DNA from: Anaerovoracaceae bacterium
GTDB taxonomy: Bacteria > Bacillota > Clostridia > Peptostreptococcales > Anaerovoracaceae
Reading direction: 5' to 3'
NCBI GenBank assembly: GCA_050946555.1
Contig: JBMNVA010000010.1
Location: 5,825 to 69,824 of the forward strand
Length of the DNA: 64,000 nucleotides
Shown: positions 4,432 to 63,524 of the stretch, in pieces
How the letters are laid out: each line of letters begins with the position of its first letter
Position numbering within the stretch: position 1 is the stretch's first letter
Notes under the pieces: generated by a model
Seen by the model: the letters and a program-made list of their open reading frames with translations, nothing else
Told to the model about the DNA's origin: nothing
Databases searched by the model: none
Translations under genes and position numbers: made by a program

Positions 4432-6046
4432 TTAACCGCTCGTGCTGTAAGAGTTGACCACTATGAAACTGTAATTGCCTCCTTCAGTGGTCGCTTGTGG
4501 GTATAGATCAAAACGATAAAATTTTATATTATCACCTTCCTCCGTTAACGTATAAATGATCTCATTGCCTTGACTATCATATTTCGGAACATCTGTAATA
4601 TCACCCTCCCAGTTGACATCAGCCGAAAGAGTCACTGTTTTATCTGTTAAATTGCCACTCTCATACTCTTTAAGTCGAATGGTTACCGAAGGCTCAAATC
4701 CCTGCGACCATTGTTTTTCAACGTGCACTTTTACTGTCTCAATATACTTCACCGTGAATCCACTGGAAGCATCTCCACTTACATCACCCTCAGTATAGCC
4801 ATCGACCGTATCTGCCGTGAGCGTATAAGTGATCGGATTTCCACTACTGTCTGTCTGATTAAGATCAGTAAAGGTACCGGTCCAGCCAGTTTCCGTTGTA
4901 AACGTTTTGCTATCGACTTCTGTTCCGTTCGCAAGGAGATGCACGGTAGCAGAGCTTCCGGCCGTTTGAATCCAATTAATGGTTACCGGGATGCTGATCG
5001 TCGCTTTCGTATTTGTCACCGTAAAGCCGCTGCTCGCATTGCCTGTTACTTCACTGGTATATCCGTCAACAGCATCTTCCGTCAGAGTATAGCTGATTTC
5101 ATTTCCGCTGCTGTCGTACTTATCAAGACCTGTGAACGTATATGTCCAGTCATTATCCGCGGTAAGCGCTGCGTTCGAAACCTCTGAGCCATTCGCAAGG
5201 AGATGCACGGTAGCCGAATCACCTTCACCGCCGACCCATTTCTTCGTCACCGGGATACTGATCGTCTCCTTCGTGTTCGTCACCGTAAAGCCGCTCTCAG
5301 CATCACCCGTGATGCTGGACGTGTACCCGGTTACAGAATCTTCGGTGAGTGTGTAGCTGATCTCTCCGTCGCTGTCTGCCTGATCCAGATCTTCGAAAGT
5401 ATAGGACCAGTCATTATCCGCGGTAAGCGTTGCGTCCGCGACCTCTGTCCCATTCGCAAGAAGATGAACCGTCGCAGAACTCCCGGTACCGCCGGACCAC
5501 ACCTTCGTGACCGGGATGCTGATCTTCTTCGTATTCGTTACCGTGAAGCCGCTCTCAGCGTCACCGGTAATATCAGATTCATAACCGTCGATCGCGTCTT
5601 CCGTCAGCGTATAAGAGATCTCATTTCCGTCGCTGGCCGCCTGATCCAGATCGGTGAAAGTATAGGACCAGCCATCGTCCGAGGTAAGCGTTTTGCTCGC
5701 GACCTCGGTTCCGTTCGCAAGGAGATGCACGGTCGCTTCCGTTCCTTCATCGCCGACCCATTTCTTCGTCACCGGGATGCTGATCTTCTTCGTATTTGTC
5801 ACCGTGAAGCCGCTCTCAGCGTCGCCTGTGATATCGGATTCATAACCGTCGATCGCGTCTTCCTTCAGCGTGTACTTGATCGTCTTCCCGTTCGAATCCG
5901 TCTTACGGAGGCCGGTAAACGTATAGGACCAGTCGTTGTCCGAAGTCAGCGTTGCGCTTTTTGTCTCATCACCGTTGGCATAAAGATGAACAGTAGCCGA
6001 CGTACCGGCATCGCCGATCCATACCTTGTCGACGTTGATAGAGATC
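4432..6046 (-). repeat. six tandem in-frame Cna-B-like coding repeats (~261 nt each)
   Basis: Directly visible as six successive peptide repeats in the C-terminal half of the 1065-aa ORF. The last copy is the most diverged. Confidence 0.85.
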
Positions 6047-7629
6047 TTTTCCGCGGCCGTAGTATCCGCCGGCACATTCTTCTCTTCCTTTGTTGGAGTA
6101 CCGAAGCTCAGGTAGTGGTTGCTGCCGACACCGCCGCCGTACGTGGCACGGTTGTTCGTGATCCTGACCGTCGCGGAACTCGTCGCCTTGGTCTCCGCTT
6201 TTGCTGAAGGTTTGTTGACGACCGCGCTCGCCTGGAGCAGGCTTGCGGACTCTTTGGTATCCGATGTCGTGTAACGGCTGCTGCTGCTCGACGTCGTCTG
6301 CGTTGATGCGCCGCCGTCCTGATACCAGGAGTTGTTTCCGCCGCCAAGCATCGTGCCGGTTACCGTGACGCCAGTATCCCCGCTTCTCGGTGATACATAA
6401 AGGTCGTCGCCGGCCCCGTCCGTTCCTCTTTTTGTCGTCGTATTGTCAAAGACAGCGATGCCGTCTGTCTTCGCTTCGCTGAACATATCGGCTTCGCCGT
6501 TCGGGCAGAACCAGAGGCCGCCGCCGAGGCTTTCCGCCTCATTGTCGGATACGAGTGTGTTTTTGAAAGAAGCGCCGCCGTAGGCTTTGCCGCTGTCGAG
6601 GAATACGCCGCCGCCTTTGTCGTCAGAGGTGTTCCCGGCGATCCTGCCCGCGGTCAGCACAGCCTTTGTATAGACGTTGCTGAAGATGCCACCGCCGTGC
6701 GTCTCGTTTTTGAGCGACGCCGCGGCTCCTTTGTCGGCACCGGTCCGGAACGCGTTGTTATTCGTGATGCTGCCGCCGCCGAGATAAAGCGAGCTGATCG
6801 CATCGCTGTCAGAAGAATACACGGCGATGGCCCCGCCGTTCCCGGAGCAGACCGTGCTGTCCGCGTCCTTCGCGTTCGCGTTATGAGACCCTGCCGTATT
6901 GTCCGAGATCTCGCCTCCGTTGACCGTGACCGATGCGCCTTCTGTGACCGCGATCGCTCCTCCGAGCGCGTTCGCGGAGACCGTCGAGTCTTCCAGAACT
7001 GCCGCCGAAGACACGACCTGGTTCCCGCTGATCGTACCGTCATTGATGATGACGGAGGCGTTTTTTCCTTCCGCGCGCAGCGCGCCGCCAAATGCGATCC
7101 CCTTTGTCGTCGAATTGCTGTTGCCGGAGATCGTTCCGTCGTTCATGGTGAACGTCCCGTCCACGATACTGATCGCAGGAACGCCGCCTTTGCCGTATTT
7201 GAAACTCGCGAAGCCGGCGCCGGCAGAGGTGCTTTCGAAGTCCTCGACCGAGCCGTCGTTCATGACCATGTCACCGTAAACAGAAAACACCGGCGTCGAA
7301 CGTTCCTTTTTGTCGCTCGCGAGGTTCACATTTTCCAGCACAAGAACGGCGCCCTTCTCGACGATAAAACCGCCTTTTCCGGTCACCGTTACATCTGCGT
7401 CATGATCCTCCTGATCCGACTTGACGATAAGATACGTTCCTTCCGGTACATCCACCATACTGTCCAGTGTGTCTCCATCATGCAGGATGAAGGTTTTCTG
7501 CTGGGCGGGGTCGCTCGCTGATCCGAATTGCAGCAGCAGTCCGATACCGATGGCAGCAGCAAGGACAGCCGCTCCCGCCAGAATGGCGAAGAGGCGCCTG
7601 GAATGCCTCTGGTTAGATATCGCTCTCAT
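4432..7629 (-). CDS. large secreted/surface protein with an N-terminal Pmp-like beta-helix region and six Cna-B-type repeats
   Basis: 1065 aa. N-terminal signal/anchor (RRLFAILAGAAVLAAAIGIGLLL). Repeated GGAI/GGGI/GGGV...N motifs (ALGGAIAV, GNGGAIAV, HGGGIF, KGGGVF, LGGGLW). These are followed by six ~87-aa repeats (ISIPVTKKWVGDEG..ATVHLLANGTEV...DGYES.ITGDAESGFTVTNTKK). No LPXTG and no C-terminal TM segment. Confidence 0.85.
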   Translation of the reverse strand: MRAISNQRHSRRLFAILAGAAVLAAAIGIGLLLQFGSASDPAQQKTFILHDGDTLDSMVDVPEGTYLIVKSDQEDHDADVTVTGKGGFIVEKGAVLVLENVNLASDKKERSTPVFSVYGDMVMNDGSVEDFESTSAGAGFASFKYGKGGVPAISIVDGTFTMNDGTISGNSNSTTKGIAFGGALRAEGKNASVIINDGTISGNQVVSSAAVLEDSTVSANALGGAIAVTEGASVTVNGGEISDNTAGSHNANAKDADSTVCSGNGGAIAVYSSDSDAISSLYLGGGSITNNNAFRTGADKGAAASLKNETHGGGIFSNVYTKAVLTAGRIAGNTSDDKGGGVFLDSGKAYGGASFKNTLVSDNEAESLGGGLWFCPNGEADMFSEAKTDGIAVFDNTTTKRGTDGAGDDLYVSPRSGDTGVTVTGTMLGGGNNSWYQDGGASTQTTSSSSSRYTTSDTKESASLLQASAVVNKPSAKAETKATSSATVRITNNRATYGGGVGSNHYLSFGTPTKEEKNVPADTTAAEKISINVDKVWIGDAGTSATVHLYANGDETKSATLTSDNDWSYTFTGLRKTDSNGKTIKYTLKEDAIDGYESDITGDAESGFTVTNTKKISIPVTKKWVGDEGTEATVHLLANGTEVASKTLTSDDGWSYTFTDLDQAASDGNEISYTLTEDAIDGYESDITGDAESGFTVTNTKKISIPVTKVWSGGTGSSATVHLLANGTEVADATLTADNDWSYTFEDLDQADSDGEISYTLTEDSVTGYTSSITGDAESGFTVTNTKETISIPVTKKWVGGEGDSATVHLLANGSEVSNAALTADNDWTYTFTGLDKYDSSGNEISYTLTEDAVDGYTSEVTGNASSGFTVTNTKATISIPVTINWIQTAGSSATVHLLANGTEVDSKTFTTETGWTGTFTDLNQTDSSGNPITYTLTADTVDGYTEGDVSGDASSGFTVKYIETVKVHVEKQWSQGFEPSVTIRLKEYESGNLTDKTVTLSADVNWEGDITDVPKYDSQGNEIIYTLTEEGDNIKFYRFDLYPQATTEGGNYSFIVVNSYSTSG

Positions 7630-7757: not shown

Positions 7758-8118
7758 TGGTGGAAGTGGCGGGAGTCGAACCCGCGTCCGAAAATATTTC
7801 CATATCACTTTCTCCGAGCGCAGCTGATGGTTTAAGCTTCGCGTTCCCGGGCGTCCATCAGCAGACTCCCGGTTCGGCTATTCCGCATTGGTCCTCAGCC
7901 GGTCCGGAAACCCCGGCTGAGTTTTCCTGCATGATCGATGCCAGGATTCCGGCCTGCAGGTGAACCGGAGCTGACACGCAAAGTCGCTGAACTAAGCAGC
8001 GAGTGCGAGATTATTATCGTTTTTAGCGTTTATATTTAAACGGCCCCTTTTAACGCAGACTGGGCACTGCGGCTCGCTTATGCTACTTCTATATCCCCGT
8101 CGAAACCTTTACACCCCC
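7758..8118 (-). ncRNA. ssrA: tmRNA (SsrA)
   Basis: The minus strand begins GGGGGTGTAAAGGTTTCGACGGGGAT and ends GGACGCGGGTTCGACTCCCGCCACTTCCACCA. The tag frame GCT AAA AAC GAT AAT AAT CTC GCA CTC GCT GCT TAG encodes AKNDNNLALAA* (8027..7992). smpB is adjacent. Confidence 0.95.
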
Positions 8119-26435: not shown

Positions 26436-26660
26436 GTATTCGCTGATGTTTCGCGCCTTGCCGGTTCATCCGCCAGCTCGCTCTCCCATGCAGTTATCCT
26501 GGCTTACGGATCATCGCAGGTCTCTCTCTCCTTCCCAGCCTTGCAGCCAGTGGATTCTCCAGTTATGAGAGCCCGCTCCCCGATTACAGTGGCGGTACCG
26601 CGCAAGATTCTAACTTGCTTCCCTCTTAGCTCCCTTTCGGGAGAACATGGAACACACATT
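26436..26660 (-). promoter_or_regulatory. cobalamin (B12) riboswitch aptamer
   Basis: The minus strand contains AGAGGGAAGCAAGTTAGAATCTTGCGCGGTACCGCCACTGTAATCGGGGAGC (conserved core). About 90 nt later it contains GTAAGCCAGGATAACTGCATGG (B12 box). Both are in the canonical 5'-to-3' order. Confidence 0.8.
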
Positions 26661-26674
26661 TCAATTGCACATAT

Positions 26675-53433: not shown

Positions 53434-53616
53434 AGAAATGCAACTCGACCTCATTTTTTTAATGAATAAAAAAGCAGCGCAGCCTCATTTTTTCAACGAA
53501 TGAAAACGCAAATCAGCCTCATTTTTTCAACGAATGAAAACGCAAATCGACCTCATTTTTCAGGCGGGCAGAAATGCAAATTGACCTCTATATTAAATAG
53601 TGCAAAAAGTGCCGAC
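53434..53616. repeat. about five tandem 34-bp iterons (two perfect copies)
   Basis: Units start at 53447, 53481, 53515, 53549 and 53583. Units 53481-53514 and 53515-53548 are identical (agcctcattttttcaacgaatgaaaacgcaaatc). Each perfect unit contains the palindrome TTTTCA-acgaa-TGAAAA. Confidence 0.85.
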
Positions 53617-53664: not shown

Positions 53665-53689
53665 GAATCTAACATAATAAACAGGATGA

Positions 53690-53872
53690 TGGATTTGGGA
53701 GAGACCGCTCACTGCCGAAGCGGAGCCGAAGGGGCAAGAATCTCGAGAAACTCTCAGGCGAAAGGACCAAACTCCGGACAAAACTCTGGAAAGCAGAACT
53801 GCACCGAAGAGGTTATTCTTTCAGGTAACCAGACAGAGCACCGAGGCGAAACCTCCCTGTGCTCTTTTTTTT
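53690..53872 (+). promoter_or_regulatory. glycine riboswitch with terminator expression platform
   Basis: Aptamer 1 has GGGAGAG (53697), CCGAAGGGGCAA (53726) and CTCTCAGGCGAAAGGAC (53751). A second, diverged aptamer-like unit has CTCTGGAAAG, CACCGAAGAGG and TTTCAGGTAACCAGACAG. This is followed by the hairpin gagcac...gtgctc plus T8 (53865-53872). Confidence 0.85.
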
Positions 53873-60091: not shown

Positions 60092-60940
60092 ATGCAGAAC
60101 AGTACGTTACAGCGTGAATGGCGGCGTGTCTGCCGTGAGGAAGCGAAATATCTGCGCGAGAACAGCAAGGTCAGCGAGTCGCGTTTAAATCGAATGCTGG
60201 AGGACAAGATCCCGGACAATCTGCAGGACACGCTGGATGCCGCGTTCTGCAAGGCGTTCGAGCTGATCTTCCAGAAAGGGACCGGCATCATCGAGAAGAC
60301 GTATGACCGGGACGAGATCGAGAAGGAGTTCCGCCGGGCGCTGGACGGCGAGGATACTTCAGCGCACACGACGAACAACCTGCGCGCGGTGTCGAACCGG
60401 GCGGAGGATTCGGGCGGGCGCAGTTTCCTTTTGTCAGGGATCGAGGGCGTCGGTCTGGGGCTTCTCGGGATCGGGCTTCCGGATATCCCGATTTTTACGG
60501 GCGTACTGCTCCGGAGTGTGTATAAGATCGCGCTGAGCTACGGATATGACTATGAATCGCGGAAGGAAAAATATTTTGTGCTGGCGGTCATTGAGGCGGC
60601 GCTCTCGCACGGCGAAAACCTTAAGGCGACAAATGATGATCTGAACCGCTTTATCGTGAACGGCAAATATCCGCCGCATTACAGCCAGGTCCGTCAGATT
60701 CGGAAGACGTCCGCGACGCTGTCGCAGGAGCTTTTGTACATGAAATTCCTGCAGGGGGTCCCTGTGGTCGGCGCGGTGGGCGGTGCCTATGACGCGATCT
60801 ATATGAAGCGGGTGCAGAAGTTCGCAAATATCAAGTACAAGCGCCGGTTCCTGGCGGATCAGCACCGGGAGGAGGATGAGCGAAACGCCTCCGAAGAGTC
60901 GGATCAAGGCGGGCCGGATGACGGACCTTCGATCGCATGA
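60092..60940 (+). CDS. EcsC family protein
   Basis: 282 aa. ...GIEGVGLGLLGIGLPDIPIFTGVLLRSVYKIALSYGYDY... and GVPVVGAVGGAYDAIYM are characteristic of EcsC-family proteins. Confidence 0.8.
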   Translation: MQNSTLQREWRRVCREEAKYLRENSKVSESRLNRMLEDKIPDNLQDTLDAAFCKAFELIFQKGTGIIEKTYDRDEIEKEFRRALDGEDTSAHTTNNLRAVSNRAEDSGGRSFLLSGIEGVGLGLLGIGLPDIPIFTGVLLRSVYKIALSYGYDYESRKEKYFVLAVIEAALSHGENLKATNDDLNRFIVNGKYPPHYSQVRQIRKTSATLSQELLYMKFLQGVPVVGAVGGAYDAIYMKRVQKFANIKYKRRFLADQHREEDERNASEESDQGGPDDGPSIA

Positions 60941-61270
60941 CGGAGACCTAACCCGGTGAGCCTTGCGAGCCGTTGGTAGGTCCCGTGTCAGGAGCGCAGC
61001 GCTTTAGCGCGTGGCGCTCTACGGCTGGAGACCTAACCCGGCGGGGAGACTTGTCCCGGCGAACGAAGTGAGTCGCAGGAAAGTCCCCCGTCAGAACCAC
61101 AGGAGCTACGCTCCGTGGTGGTTCACGGCGAATGCAATAAGCCGTTGGTAGGTCCCCCGCCAGGCTCACCGGCGATGCGAAGCAAGCCGCTGTGAGCTAC
61201 GGCAAGTTCCGTGGTGGTTCACGGCGAATGAGGTGAGTCGTAGGAAAGTCCACCGTTAGAACCAGACTTA
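60941..61270. repeat. degenerate non-coding repeat array (about 3.5 units of 75-100 bp)
   Basis: Duplicated blocks: ggagacctaacccgg (60942, 61027); gccgttggtaggtccc (60969, 61141); tccgtggtggttcacggcgaatg (61112, 61208; 23/23 identical); gtgagtcgYaggaaagtccMccgtYagaacca (61068, 61233). Confidence 0.8.
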
Positions 61271-61294
61271 TAGGACAAAACGTGTTGCTAATAA

Positions 61295-61343
61295 CCGCTG
61301 CAACCGTTGAAACATCAATGGCTGCAGCGGTTTTATCTTTTTT
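61295..61343 (+). terminator. intrinsic terminator closing the ecsC / repeat-region transcript
   Basis: ccgctgca-N20-tgcagcgg followed by ttttatctttttt. Confidence 0.7.
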
Positions 61344-61552
61344 AATCAACTTACATGTTACAAGGTGGACAAAACGCGTTGGTAAAAATCTACGAAAGCA
61401 TTGAATTTTCAATGCGGATCAGTGTTGTATCTTTATCGTTTTTCCTTTTTCAGATGGCGAAGGGAATTACGCGCCTTGCCAACAGAAATCAAATGCAAGG
61501 CGCCGTCCTGCGCGGCCTCATACAGGCCGCTTGGACCGCTCGCGCCCTATAG

Positions 61553-62117
61553 CGGTCGCTTCCATTCCGCTCTGCTTCGCACTCGCGGGGAAGCTTCGCA
61601 TCAGACCTTCCTCCGCTTCGCTCTTCTCTTGACCTGTTATGCCCGAAGCGGGGATAGGGCTTGACCGGTCGCTTCCGTTCCGCTCTGCTTCGCATTCGCG
61701 GGGAAGCTTCGCATCAGACCTTCCTCCGCTTCGGTCTTCTCTTATCCTGTTTTGTCCGAAGCGGGGATAGGGCTTGACCGGTCGCTTCCATTCCGCTCTG
61801 CTTCGCACTCGCGGGGAAGCTTCGCATCAGACCTTCCTCCGCTTCGCTCTTCTCTTGACCTGTTATGCCCGAAGCGGGGATAGGGCTTGACCGGTCGCTT
61901 CCATTCCGCTCTGCTTCGCATTCGCAGGGAAGCTTCGCATCAGACCTTCCTCCGCTTCGCTCTTCTCTTGACCTGTTATGCCCGAAGCGGGGATAGGGCT
62001 TGATCGGTCGCTTCCGTTCCGCTCTGCTTCGCATTCGCGGGGAAGCTTCGCATCAGACCTTCCTCCGCTTCGGTCTTCTCTTATCCTGTTTTGCCCGAAG
62101 CGGGGATAGGGACTTGA
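61553..62117. repeat. five tandem copies of a 113-bp non-coding repeat
   Basis: Units start at 61553, 61666, 61779, 61892 and 62005, an exact 113-bp period. Copies 1 and 3 are identical. Copies 2 and 5 share a second variant. Copy 4 is intermediate. Confidence 0.95.
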
Positions 62118-62149
62118 TCGGGTTCGATTCCCTTCCTTTTGTCATTCCA

Positions 62150-62180
62150 CAGAAAAAGCCCTCCTTTTGGAGGGCTTTTC
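62150..62180 (-). terminator. intrinsic terminator directly after tRNA-Gly (near-palindromic, possibly bidirectional)
   Basis: Minus strand reads aaagccctcc-aaaa-ggagggcttt followed by ttctgtgg. The plus strand reads almost the same. Confidence 0.75.
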
Positions 62181-62182
62181 TG

Positions 62183-62256
62183 TGGAGCGGGCGAAGGGAA
62201 TCGAACCCTCGATTCGAGCTTGGGAAGCTCGTGTTTTACCATTAAACTACGCCCGC
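62183..62256 (-). tRNA. tRNA-Gly (anticodon CCC), CCA encoded
   Basis: The minus strand is GCGGGCGTAGTTTAATGGTAAAACACGAGCTTCCCAAGCTCGAATCGAGGGTTCGATTCCCTTCGCCCGCTCCA. It folds as a cloverleaf: acceptor GCGGGCG/CGCCCGC, anticodon stem CGAGC/GCTCG, loop TTCCCAA. Confidence 0.95.
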
Positions 62257-62294
62257 AGGTCGTGCCGGGATGGCCGGCACGCTTTATTATACTA

Positions 62295-63524
62295 CTATTT
62301 TTTCATGGCTTCAAGAATTTTCGCCGGGATGATGCGGCACTGGTCTTCGGTCACAGAAGCGACAGAGACACGGAGCCCTTTCCCGAACGGTACGAGGAAG
62401 ATCCCTTCTTCCTCCAGCTTGAGGCCGAGGCCTTTCGGATCGTCGCACGGGACGGTCACAAAGAATCCGGAGTCGTACGGAAGAATCTCCAGGCCGGCTT
62501 CTTCAGCCGCCTTTTCAAACGCTCTTCCGCGCGCATGCAGGACTTTTCCGATCTCGGCACGTTCCCGGGTCACTTCCTTCAGCAGCTCCTCATCCGCAAA
62601 GATCTTCTCGATCAGGCTCTGCCCGATGCGCGGGCTGTTGGACCAGGTCGCACGGCAGGAAAACTCACAGACGCGCACGAACTCTTCCGCGATCTCCTCG
62701 CTCGGCGCCATCGCGATCAGTGCGCCGCAGCGCATTCCGTACATCGTGAACGTCTTGGACAGGCTGAACGCGAGCATCGGGAACACGTTCCCCGGCAGCT
62801 CTTCCAGCTTCGGCAGGAAGCCGCGCACCCGGTCCTCATCACCGGCGAAGTCGATATACGCGGTATCCACCAGCAGAGTTGCTCTTTTGTCCTTCGGAAT
62901 CGCAGACAGGATCGCAACGATCTGATCCCACTCTTCCAGCGTCACCTCGTAGCCTGTCGGGTTCTGCGCCGGCGTGTTGATAATGATCAAAAGATCTTCC
63001 TGTTCGGACAGAAGTTCCTTTATTTTTTCTTCAAATGCTTCCAGGTTGAAGCCGCGGTTCTCGTTGAACAGACCGAACGAGACGACGCTGCGCCCCTGCT
63101 CATCGGCGATCTTGTTATACGGGCCCCAGTGCCAGTCTGTCGTGAGGATACGGTCTCCGCGGTTCGTATAGTTTGCCACCGCGGTGCGGATCGCTCCGGT
63201 TCCTCCCGGCGTCGCGACAACACGCACCTCCGACTTCGGGGTGTAGCTCCGGAACGCCGCGCGTTTGACCGCTGCGCGGTACCCCGGTGTGCCGCCGATC
63301 GGTGCATACGGTGCGAACTCCTCCGCCGAGATCGTCTTGATCTCAGACGCTACCGAAGAAAGCACCATTGGTTTTCCGTCATCCCCCAGAAGCATGCCGA
63401 TCGTTCCATTGATCACCTCGCGTCCTGCGGCCTTTGCCGCGTTTGCGCGCTGGCTGATCCCAAAGATCGCATCTTCCGCAGGGATCGTTCTGTCATTCTG
63501 GTCTGCAAAAATAAACTCAGACAT
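62295..63524 (-). CDS. class I/II PLP-dependent aminotransferase (aspartate/aromatic type)
   Basis: GTIGMLLGDDGKP...YAPIGGTPGYR...SLSKTFTMYGMRCGALIA (PLP-Lys in SxSK). The ATG at 63524 has proper spacing from GGAGGG; the track start at 63530 abuts the RBS. Confidence 0.88.
   Translation of the reverse strand: MSEFIFADQNDRTIPAEDAIFGISQRANAAKAAGREVINGTIGMLLGDDGKPMVLSSVASEIKTISAEEFAPYAPIGGTPGYRAAVKRAAFRSYTPKSEVRVVATPGGTGAIRTAVANYTNRGDRILTTDWHWGPYNKIADEQGRSVVSFGLFNENRGFNLEAFEEKIKELLSEQEDLLIIINTPAQNPTGYEVTLEEWDQIVAILSAIPKDKRATLLVDTAYIDFAGDEDRVRGFLPKLEELPGNVFPMLAFSLSKTFTMYGMRCGALIAMAPSEEIAEEFVRVCEFSCRATWSNSPRIGQSLIEKIFADEELLKEVTRERAEIGKVLHARGRAFEKAAEEAGLEILPYDSGFFVTVPCDDPKGLGLKLEEEGIFLVPFGKGLRVSVASVTEDQCRIIPAKILEAMKK

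Follow-up and report, generated by a model that had tools for sequence, protein, structure and literature searches.

A 113-bp tandem array downstream of tRNA-Gly(CCC) in an Anaerovoracaceae bacterium: probable expansion of a small tRNA-linked structured element

In a 64,000-nt stretch of DNA from an Anaerovoracaceae bacterium (assembly GCA_050946555.1, contig JBMNVA010000010.1; the whole stretch is called the window in the following), positions 61553-62117 hold five head-to-tail, non-coding units of 113 bp, and the locus raises the question of where such an array comes from and whether it serves any purpose. A sequence-only reading of the window had described five exact tandem repeats rich in hairpins, which abut a tRNA-Gly gene and match no recognised class of element. 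While the description of the repeats holds true, the array was found to sit in an element that is flanked by copies of the tRNA 3' end and has homologs in other species. This element, named E here, directly follows tRNA-Gly(CCC) and is read on the strand of the tRNA (minus). We consider it probable, though by no means certain, that the array arose by tandem amplification of the interior of E and that E itself is a miniature island or attachment-site (att) scar without integrase at tRNA-Gly(CCC). An orphan-looking 565-bp repeat can thereby be read as the remnant of an insertion at a tRNA site, with a core that is conserved in distant relatives and a tandem expansion in this genome.

The array and its tRNA-derived flanks

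The features on which this explanation is built are given below in the order of the minus strand, together with the type of evidence.

62183-62256, minus: tRNA-Gly(CCC) with encoded CCA, the 3' end of which is copied on both flanks of the array (ARAGORN; Rfam tRNA model, 71.8 bits)
62147-62182, both strands: bidirectional intrinsic terminator with the core GCCCTCC-TTTT-GGAGGGC and T-runs on both strands (sequence; strong hairpin in the fold)
62118-62139, minus: intact inverted copy of the tRNA-Gly T-arm and acceptor 3' strand, termed antiT (inverted repeat, pattern search, model match)
61553-62117, minus: array of five 113-bp units, u1 to u5, numbered on the plus strand (Tandem Repeats Finder (TRF), repeat search, unit alignment, folds, covariance model)
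61452-61570, minus: conserved 3' part of E, the first elements of which are a degenerate antiT formed by the end of the leftmost unit, then a small hairpin and GCGAGCGGUCCAAG (covariance model R1, covariation, folding energies of the strands)
61512-61530, minus: hairpin P4, a stem of 5-7 bp with the loop UGUAUGA, followed by CGCAGGACGGC
61471-61503, minus: hairpin P5, followed by GCGUA and the displaced tRNA end
61456-61467, minus: direct repeat (DR) of 12 nt resembling a displaced fragment, ATTCCCTTCGCC (exact-match scan)

The repeat structure was confirmed by three determinations. TRF gave a period of 113 from 61553 to 62121 with 5.0 copies, 94% matches, 0% indels and a score of 1017, a repeat search of the window showed a unit-to-unit spacing of exactly 113 nt, and a 15-mer of the unit occurred five times in the window, each time within the array, at a chance expectation of 0.35. 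The units are 90-100% identical to one another. The proposed order of variants (A, B, A, A', B) was right except for the last unit: u1 and u3 have the same sequence, u2 is the B variant and u4 is A with 3 changes, while u5 resembles B but has another base than u2 at position 90 and one inserted nucleotide close to its end. The window array therefore comprises four distinct unit sequences (u1=u3, u2, u4 and u5), and more than two unit types exist.

Among the units, 8 substitution sites were counted, 5 of which lie inside the loop of the stem CCGCTTCG...CGAAGCGG. The reported combination of an invariant stem with a variable loop, which comprises 23 nt, is real. A second stem, GCGGGGAAG/CTTCCTCCGC, is possible as proposed, but competes with the pairings of the minimum-energy folds. 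The further argument that conserved stems with variable loops suggest selection is weak, because it is drawn from about eight linked substitutions in five near-identical copies with no compensatory change; unpaired positions hold 7 of the 8 sites compared to 45% expected.

Read on the minus strand, each unit comprises a degenerate antisense-T-arm segment (GCGGAAUGGAAGCGACCG), a segment resembling the tRNA 3' end (CCCUAUCCCCGCU), which opens a long hairpin H2, a spacer and a second hairpin H1 (GCUUCCCCGC...GCGGAAUGGAAGC). In H1 a tRNA-end-like strand is paired with an antiT-like strand, and H2 likewise starts with a tRNA-end-like strand. The folding z-scores of single units were -2.5 and -4.0 on the minus strand and -1.4 and -2.8 on the plus strand. 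Homology and folding energies together point to the minus strand, i.e. the strand of the tRNA, as the sense strand, whereas the earlier reading had named none.

The array does not abut the tRNA, as had been stated, but is separated from it by 65 nt, which contain the inverted T-arm copy and the bidirectional terminator. A perfect 16-mer within antiT (62120-62135; GGGTTCGATTCCCTTC on the plus strand) is 100% complementary to 62193-62208 in the tRNA. The periodicity of the array extends about 20 nt beyond the edge given by TRF and runs into antiT, and a comparison of the intact antiT flank with the matching part of the unit showed 21 of 27 positions identical, which none of 2000 shuffles equalled. 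Only the antiT-like segment carries this significance; the similarity of the whole unit to tRNA-Gly was matched by 156 of 500 shuffles and is not significant. On the other side of the array, DR reproduces sequence of the tRNA-Gly 3' end that reaches from the T-loop into the acceptor strand. It is oriented like the tRNA itself, and in the fold of 746 nt it is base-paired with the right flank. Accordingly, E ends in antiT, the inverted T-arm copy, as the 5' arm and in DR, which repeats the tRNA 3' end from the T-loop on in direct orientation, as the 3' arm of a stem that closes a multi-helix fold.

The complete order on the minus strand is thus tRNA 3' end, terminator, antiT, five times the series of linker, H2, linker and H1, then the small hairpin, P4, P5 and the displaced tRNA end. 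Each 113-nt unit is a decayed module of a tRNA-end-like segment, a hairpin and an antiT-like segment, the intact version of which is formed by the real tRNA 3' end, the terminator and antiT. Compared to their mutual identity, the units are only about 75% identical to this intact module, which suggests that one already-diverged module was multiplied five-fold.

The open reading frames (ORFs) of 59, 68, 96 and 106 aa on the minus strand are the unit read in shifting frames and represent no repeat protein, as had been recognised before; for the 106-aa ORF no homolog was found among 5.8 billion proteins. An array of small ORFs on this strand, with GGAGG, 8 nt, ATG and a 25-37-aa frame (MRSFPA[NS]AKQSG[TM]EAT[DG]QALSPLRA) in each unit, is nevertheless conceivable in form, since the Shine-Dalgarno sequence, the spacing and the start codon are present in 5 of 5 units and the stop of B-type units overlaps the next start (TGATG). 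This explanation is extremely unlikely, because apart from the missing homolog the differences between units are almost all non-synonymous, the positions of the stops vary, GGAGG is buried in the H2 stem, 113 is not a multiple of 3, and the array lies downstream of a terminator with no promoter.

Several known classes were considered for the array and rejected. A CRISPR array does not fit, as the whole 113-bp unit is 90-100% conserved and no unique spacers occur, and a dispersed repeat of the repetitive extragenic palindrome (REP)/bacterial interspersed mosaic element (BIME) or miniature inverted-repeat transposable element (MITE) type does not fit because no other copy was present in the 64-kb window or the searched collections. 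The statement that the array is neither CRISPR nor REP/BIME nor an insertion sequence (IS) is right. Tandem small RNA (sRNA) genes would have a promoter and a terminator for every unit, and a type III antitoxin array would show a promoter, the array, a terminator and a toxin gene in this order; the array has no promoter-like site, no internal T-runs, no per-unit terminators and no toxin ORF downstream. In a CsrB-like sponge the GGA motifs would lie in loops, while here they are paired. For a ribozyme of the hepatitis delta virus (HDV)-like or hammerhead type there was no Rfam match and only the resemblance of a GCGAAUGG-type motif, and for an IS110-type bridge RNA or a retron neither a recombinase nor a reverse transcriptase gene was present.

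The number of units deserves separate consideration. Two Joint Genome Institute (JGI) contigs from the species of the window contain 2 units each and are 339 bp shorter than the window form, and two Logan contigs end within the array. Because short-read contigs show 2 units, the number five is tentative. An assembly artefact, in which the true locus has 1-2 units and the five-unit form is mis-assembled, could account for two independent contigs with exactly 2 units and for the Logan contigs stopping inside the array. It is, however, very improbable, since four distinct unit sequences in the window require more than two unit types and the two JGI contigs are two different chimeras of window units, as would be expected if a longer array had collapsed in a de Bruijn graph. 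Moreover, 2 units with their flanks would still leave the main conclusion standing. The proposed search for other loci and for variation in copy number yielded no other locus, and for the second point only these chimeric contigs of the same species. In practice, the array locus breaks or is collapsed in short-read assemblies and is prone to being miscalled as several small ORFs, while true variation in copy number would make it usable for distinguishing strains.

Element E in related genomes

The array unit was found nowhere outside its species. No similar sequence occurred in any collection searched: blastn of the array and its flanks gave no match in phages or plasmids, a 20-mer of the unit had 0 matches in metagenome contigs and 0 in IMG/VR, and the unit had no match in GTDB representative genomes and no further copy in the 64-kb window. 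A stem-based pattern gave 60 matches in genome contigs, all of them single chance matches in GC-rich genomes and none unit-like. Rfam likewise showed no match for the array, neither in a scan of the whole window at the gathering threshold nor in a scan of 60800-62400 at an E-value of <=10.

In contrast to the unit, the left flank of the array has relatives. A low-stringency blastn search of the window region against the syntenic loci of related genomes (designated by L-numbers) showed that this flank matches L074-77 and L093 just past tRNA-Gly(CCC). In these two other Anaerovoracaceae lineages E comprises 137-186 nt and is associated with the same tRNA, on the tRNA strand and with ends of the same two kinds. 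It starts with antiT (AGGGAAUCGAACCC, the inverted T-arm copy), which in L074 and L093 is located 13-48 nt past the tRNA, and continues with a CCC-GAAA-GGG hairpin, CAUGAGCGUGAAGC, hairpin P3, GUAGCGAAUGGUCC(A/G)AG, hairpin P4, CG(A/C)AGGACGGC, hairpin P5 and G(U/C)GUA. The last part repeats the tRNA 3' end in direct orientation over 16 nt in L074-77 and 19 nt in L093. Between the lineages the linker motifs are near-identical, while the hairpin sequences are entirely different. A blastn search with E of L093 matched only the tRNA-end part.

The fold of E is a junction closed by the pairing of antiT with the direct tRNA-end copy. Its folding z-scores were -6.5 and -4.4, and the tRNA-sense strand was 6-12 kcal/mol more stable than the antisense strand; for the 3' part of E in the window the difference was 6 kcal/mol in favour of the sense strand. 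An alignment of the 3' domain (P4 and P5) of L074, L093 and the window showed compensatory changes in 9 of 17 pairs, with 96% of the cells paired compared to <=49% in slid controls, and 0 of 500 shuffles reached the observed values. The covariation that the earlier reading had suggested looking for is thus absent among the units, where no change is compensatory, but present in the flanking 3' domain across species.

For an independent comparison, covariance model R1 was built from L074, L075, L076 and L093 only, i.e. with the window left out. It matched the window at 61452-61570 on the minus strand with 66.6 bits, corresponding to an E-value of about 6e-17 locally and about 2e-14 over 637 kb (loci and window). 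In the alignment P4, P5 and the copy of the tRNA end are present, the P3 arm is absent, and the 5' arm of the closing stem is taken by GCGGAAUGGAAGCGACCG, the end of the leftmost array unit. A weaker match of 12.4 bits at 62099-62137 (minus) uses the intact antiT and GUCCCUAUCCCCGCU as the two arms, GUCCCUAUCCCCGCU being the start of the first unit, which the model aligns to the tRNA-end arm. R1 finds a single copy of E in the window.

These matches bear directly on the possibility of a neutral minisatellite which arose by slippage in junk DNA and resembles the tRNA and E only incidentally. Long-period intergenic arrays recur in related genomes (L067, L078, L113, L126 and L151), the unit has no homolog in the collections searched and the copy number may vary, all of which would suit such an origin. 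On the other hand, an independent model takes the end of the unit as the 5' arm of the element at 66.6 bits, the periodicity enters a perfect copy of the tRNA T-arm, and the array is placed exactly between both arms of a conserved closing stem. An origin unrelated to E is therefore largely refuted and quite improbable. It is only this lack of relation that is rejected, since the slippage mechanism itself is part of the best explanation. Altogether, E is a small, previously undescribed structured element linked to tRNA-Gly(CCC), and the array is its lineage-specific expansion.

Origin and possible function of the element

A regenerated tRNA followed by a displaced 3' fragment which starts in the T-loop is the signature of tyrosine integrases that use the T-loop, and for this reason E is read as an island or att scar. 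It is assumed that E began as, or behaves like, such a miniature scar without integrase, and that unequal recombination or replication slippage was then driven by the hairpins together with the short direct repeats of tRNA origin. Among the roles proposed by the sequence-only reading, a recombination scar at a tRNA integration site comes nearest to the evidence.

A number of observations weigh against this explanation. The window DR ends 7 nt before the tRNA end without continuing into CGCTCCA and, being only 12 nt long, is not a clean displaced tRNA end. Neither an integrase or excisionase nor any other gene is encoded in the 0.7-kb segment, and in the relatives no integrase is present within 3-4 kb of E, with housekeeping genes only around L074 and L093. 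No parent mobile element was found, as the unit and the motifs of E are absent from the IMG/VR, phage and plasmid collections. A MAFFT alignment of the interior of the window element with the P2-P3 region of the relatives was poor and ambiguous, because GCGAAGC occurs three times per unit; the designation as amplified interior of E is well founded where the ends and the antiT-like segments are concerned, and less so for the remaining unit. Since E is present in only three lineages, the covariation statistics rest on 3 sequences, from which the structure itself was derived. Finally, the strong conservation of the linkers at an aminotransferase identity of 56-63% speaks more for an RNA under selection than for a simple scar.

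The dynamics of the site can be followed in the relatives. L081 represents an empty site, in which tRNA-Gly is followed after 27 nt by the same exo/endo-phosphatase gene without E, although its aminotransferase is 82% identical to that of L074. Strain L073 (SRR11702762), 98.9% identical over 1.8 kb, leaves the window sequence 5 nt past the CCA of tRNA-Gly. Its differing sequence, CAAAAGGACACCCTCAA, was observed at L073 1796-1812 (window ~62166-62182), where the contig ends, so that only 12 nt of the alternative are visible. Between L074, L075 and L076, strains of a single species, the differences consist of a partial second copy and of sequence exchanges between the proximal and distal spacers. 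In L093 the module of DR, terminator and antiT has a partial tandem duplicate, which indicates that sites bearing E tend to grow in tandem; at L093 4655-4740 the tRNA 3' end, the terminator, antiT and the first 30 nt of E are repeated right after the complete E with a period of ~186 nt.

Other arrays and tRNA-end copies were observed in the same family. At L132 4440-4520, the sequence after tRNA-Gly(CCC) consists of a terminator and then 13 nt that repeat the 3' end of this tRNA in inverted orientation (GGTGAAGGGAATC), with no core of E and an XRE-type gene next to it; thus the combination of a terminator and an inverted tRNA-end copy recurs where the rest differs. L067, the aminotransferase of which is 76% identical to that of L074 and 62% to that of the window, has no E. 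Its spacer after tRNA-Gly(CCC) (6589-7203) holds two degenerate tRNA-end-like 21-mers (CTTCCCTTTCGCGCCGGCCGC) and then two unrelated arrays, one of 97 bp (x2.2) and one of 98 bp (x2.9); the unit of the latter includes the palindrome GTGCTACC-CA-GGTAGCAC. An intergenic 91-bp x3.7 array is located upstream of ecfA at L078 22-358, where sister L069 has a REP-like motif. As such long-period intergenic arrays (73-98 bp; examples L067, L078, L113, L126 and L151) occur in several related genomes, the judgement that the array is unusual for a compact chromosome was overstated. The spacer downstream of tRNA-Gly was also considered as a general hotspot for arrays, but this was rejected, because among about two dozen species arrays are present only in the species of the window, L067 and L151 (~840 nt off). 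Among 80 more distant syntenic loci the tRNA was present in 18, one of which showed a long-period repeat within 1.5 kb.

The distribution of E is patchy. In a more far-reaching proposal, E would be a tiny (~0.14-0.2 kb) gene-less mobile element for the T-loop/3' end of tRNA-Gly(CCC), in which antiT folds onto the tRNA-end copy and rebuilds the target duplex or an RNA mimic of it, a recombinase acting in trans inserts the element, repeated insertion or unequal exchange builds arrays, and the multi-helix core is the part that is recognised. We regard this proposal as unlikely. If E is mobile, it would be among the smallest site-specific insertion elements known, and if a tyrosine integrase serves it, the attP site would carry ATTCCCTTCGCCCGCTCCA and antiT.

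Whether E acts as an RNA depends on its transcription, for which two further features are relevant.

62286-62314, minus: sigma-70-like promoter TTGAAG-17-TATAAT upstream of tRNA-Gly (promoter scan)
61293-61332, plus: terminator-like hairpin with a T-run, which closes the unit on the EcsC side and bounds the element region on the left (inverted repeat of 18 nt, 89% complementary)

The promoter at 62286-62314 is the only promoter-like site found in 60800-62400; neither strand showed one within the array or upstream of it, including 61333-61552 on the plus strand. The terminator at 62147-62182, which is spanned by an Rfam SpF41-like alignment of tRNA plus terminator, is predicted to end the tRNA-Gly transcript and to part the tRNA from the element. 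Read-through from the tRNA-Gly promoter is the likeliest source of any transcript of E, which would then be a trailer of tRNA-Gly; in L074, which has no intervening terminator, E may be co-transcribed directly with tRNA-Gly.

A function of the amplified element as a multi-module RNA of the minus strand, i.e. as a tRNA-Gly trailer that offers a multivalent platform or decoy to a recogniser of the 3' half of tRNA-Gly, could explain why the linker motifs are almost invariant at 56-63% aminotransferase identity while the hairpins covary, why folding clearly favours the sense over the antisense strand, why 7 of 8 substitutions in the units affect unpaired positions, and why the 3' arm carries the acceptor 3' strand of the tRNA. 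Against this function stand the strong terminator between the tRNA and the window element, the lack of an own promoter in the scanned region, the near-identity (94-100%) and hence young age of the units without compensatory change, the loss of the P3 arm and the CAUGAGCGUGAAGC motif, both of which are kept in the relatives, the presence of 2 units in other assemblies of the same species and the absence of a nearby gene for a partner protein. A function of the amplified form is for these reasons rather unlikely. While E looks like an element that keeps a folded RNA, the extra units most likely add nothing functional and form a lineage-specific minisatellite built from a structured element. If the core of E is a functional RNA, it would represent an undescribed family with a closing stem made of copies of the neighbouring tRNA's 3' end, and its only known relative would be Clostridiales-1.

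The sequence-only reading had listed first an array of structured sRNA or decoy units, which on the plus strand would end at the bidirectional terminator. Each unit yields a pair of hairpins on this strand as well, pairing of Shine-Dalgarno regions with the CCUCC tract and the pyrimidine-rich loop is conceivable in principle, and the terminator at 62147-62182 works on the plus strand as well. Nonetheless, this explanation is highly improbable, since 61333-61552 holds no plus-strand promoter-like site, the units have no terminators of their own and fold less significantly on the plus than on the minus strand, the homologs put the sense strand on the strand of the tRNA, and Rfam gave no match. 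In the absence of a promoter, per-unit terminators, a partner gene or any other copy, the sRNA or decoy role is unsupported, and the same holds true for the proposed centromere-like role.

The neighbouring genes set the frame for these comparisons. On the minus strand the tRNA is accompanied by an aminotransferase gene (62295-63524) and trmB, and the adjacency of the aminotransferase gene and tRNA-Gly(CCC) is kept in the relatives. The closest relatives of the aminotransferase, from Anaerovoracaceae (Emergencia, Hornefia, Zhenpiania and Aminipila), are only 64% identical, and the EcsC protein is likewise without a close relative, which limits the power of the comparison. The lineages with E share only 56-63% aminotransferase identity, and relatives without E are found between them. 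The plus strand up to 60940 comprises the glycine-cleavage genes, lpdA and a gene of the EcsC family (Clostridia-like), while 61333-62182 contains no credible gene.

Just past the EcsC stop, at 60940-61265, four related segments of ~46 nt were observed (e.g. GCCGTTGGTAGGTCCCGTGTCAGGAGCGCAGCGCTTTAGCGCGTGGCGCTCTACGGC). A 50-nt motif which is 88% identical to them occurs in the tuf-ecfA spacer of L069 (1272-1321), with a partial copy at 1499-1519. The segments matched neither Rfam nor R1, and they look like a dispersed REP/MITE-like or non-coding RNA family in Anaerovoracaceae. Searches for the motifs of E gave 12 matches in IMG/VR, all of which lay in coding sequence or were due to chance, and no match was obtained with a gapped motif of 20 bases. 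Elsewhere in the window, a single-aptamer glycine riboswitch (53686-53779, 61.5 bits) precedes the glycine-cleavage genes, with a 34-bp x3.3 tandem repeat (53449-53560) ~125 nt upstream of it. A 261-bp x3.1 tandem repeat with 77% match (5069-5957) probably represents repeated protein domains, and a tmRNA with the tag AKNDNNLALAA (7758-8118) and a cobalamin riboswitch (26472-26665) were also identified.

Comparison with known systems

Bacterial intergenic minisatellites or variable-number tandem repeats (VNTRs), for example the mycobacterial interspersed repetitive unit (MIRU) loci, resemble the array in their form. It consists of head-to-tail repeats of >=10 bp in non-coding DNA and is thus a minisatellite, with near-identical intergenic units of ~100 bp and few variant positions; its copy number may differ between assemblies, and similar arrays occur in related genomes. 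Compared to these loci, however, the array is restricted to a single locus without a dispersed family, and its unit derives from a tRNA-linked structured element and lies inside the closing stem of that element. Tandem arrays of sRNA or antitoxin genes such as LhrC1-4, NsiR1 and ToxI also consist of hairpin-forming units of tens to ~110 nt, but the array has neither promoters and terminators for each unit nor an adjacent toxin gene, and its unit is not conserved in other genomes.

For E itself the closest known RNA is Clostridiales-1 (RF01699), a large structure of four stems that is common in the human gut and has no assigned function (PMC2864571). E of L074 together with the adjoining tRNA 3' half matched this family with 26.6 bits and an E-value of 6e-4, compared to an Rfam gathering threshold of 48 bits, while L093 did not match and the window gave no match even at an E-value of <=10. 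Both share a multi-stem fold closed by a terminal helix, a core helix with tandem G-A pairs around a hairpin (CAUGAGC...GCGAAUG) and an occurrence in Clostridia and gut-type metagenomes. The core of Clostridiales-1 reads AUGAGCAU-hairpin-AUGCGAAUG, and L074 and L093 show CAUGAGCGU-hairpin-UAGCGAAUG in the fold closed by P1, an arm that the window does not have. On the other hand, the 3' domains are unlike, the Rfam alignment takes the first helix and hairpin partly from the tRNA itself, and no tRNA linkage has been described for the family. E thus weakly resembles Clostridiales-1, but is no member of it.

The third comparison is with islands and att scars at tRNA genes. Integration of an island at a tRNA gene regenerates the tRNA and leaves a displaced 3' fragment (PMC4383910), attB cores in the T-loop are documented (PMC1762012), and integrase-less, CIME-like remnants flanked by att sites are known (PMC5704250). 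E differs from these systems in its size of only 0.14-0.7 kb without integrase or gene, in the inverted T-arm copy that pairs with the displaced fragment and in an interior that is a conserved, covarying fold with no parent element found. It agrees with them in that a complete tRNA is followed by a copy of its 3' end in the same orientation, starting in the T-loop (12 nt in the window, 16-19 nt in L074 and L093), in that the terminator stems from the tRNA-proximal end, in the empty site of a close relative (L081), and in strains that differ right past the tRNA and carry partial tandem copies.

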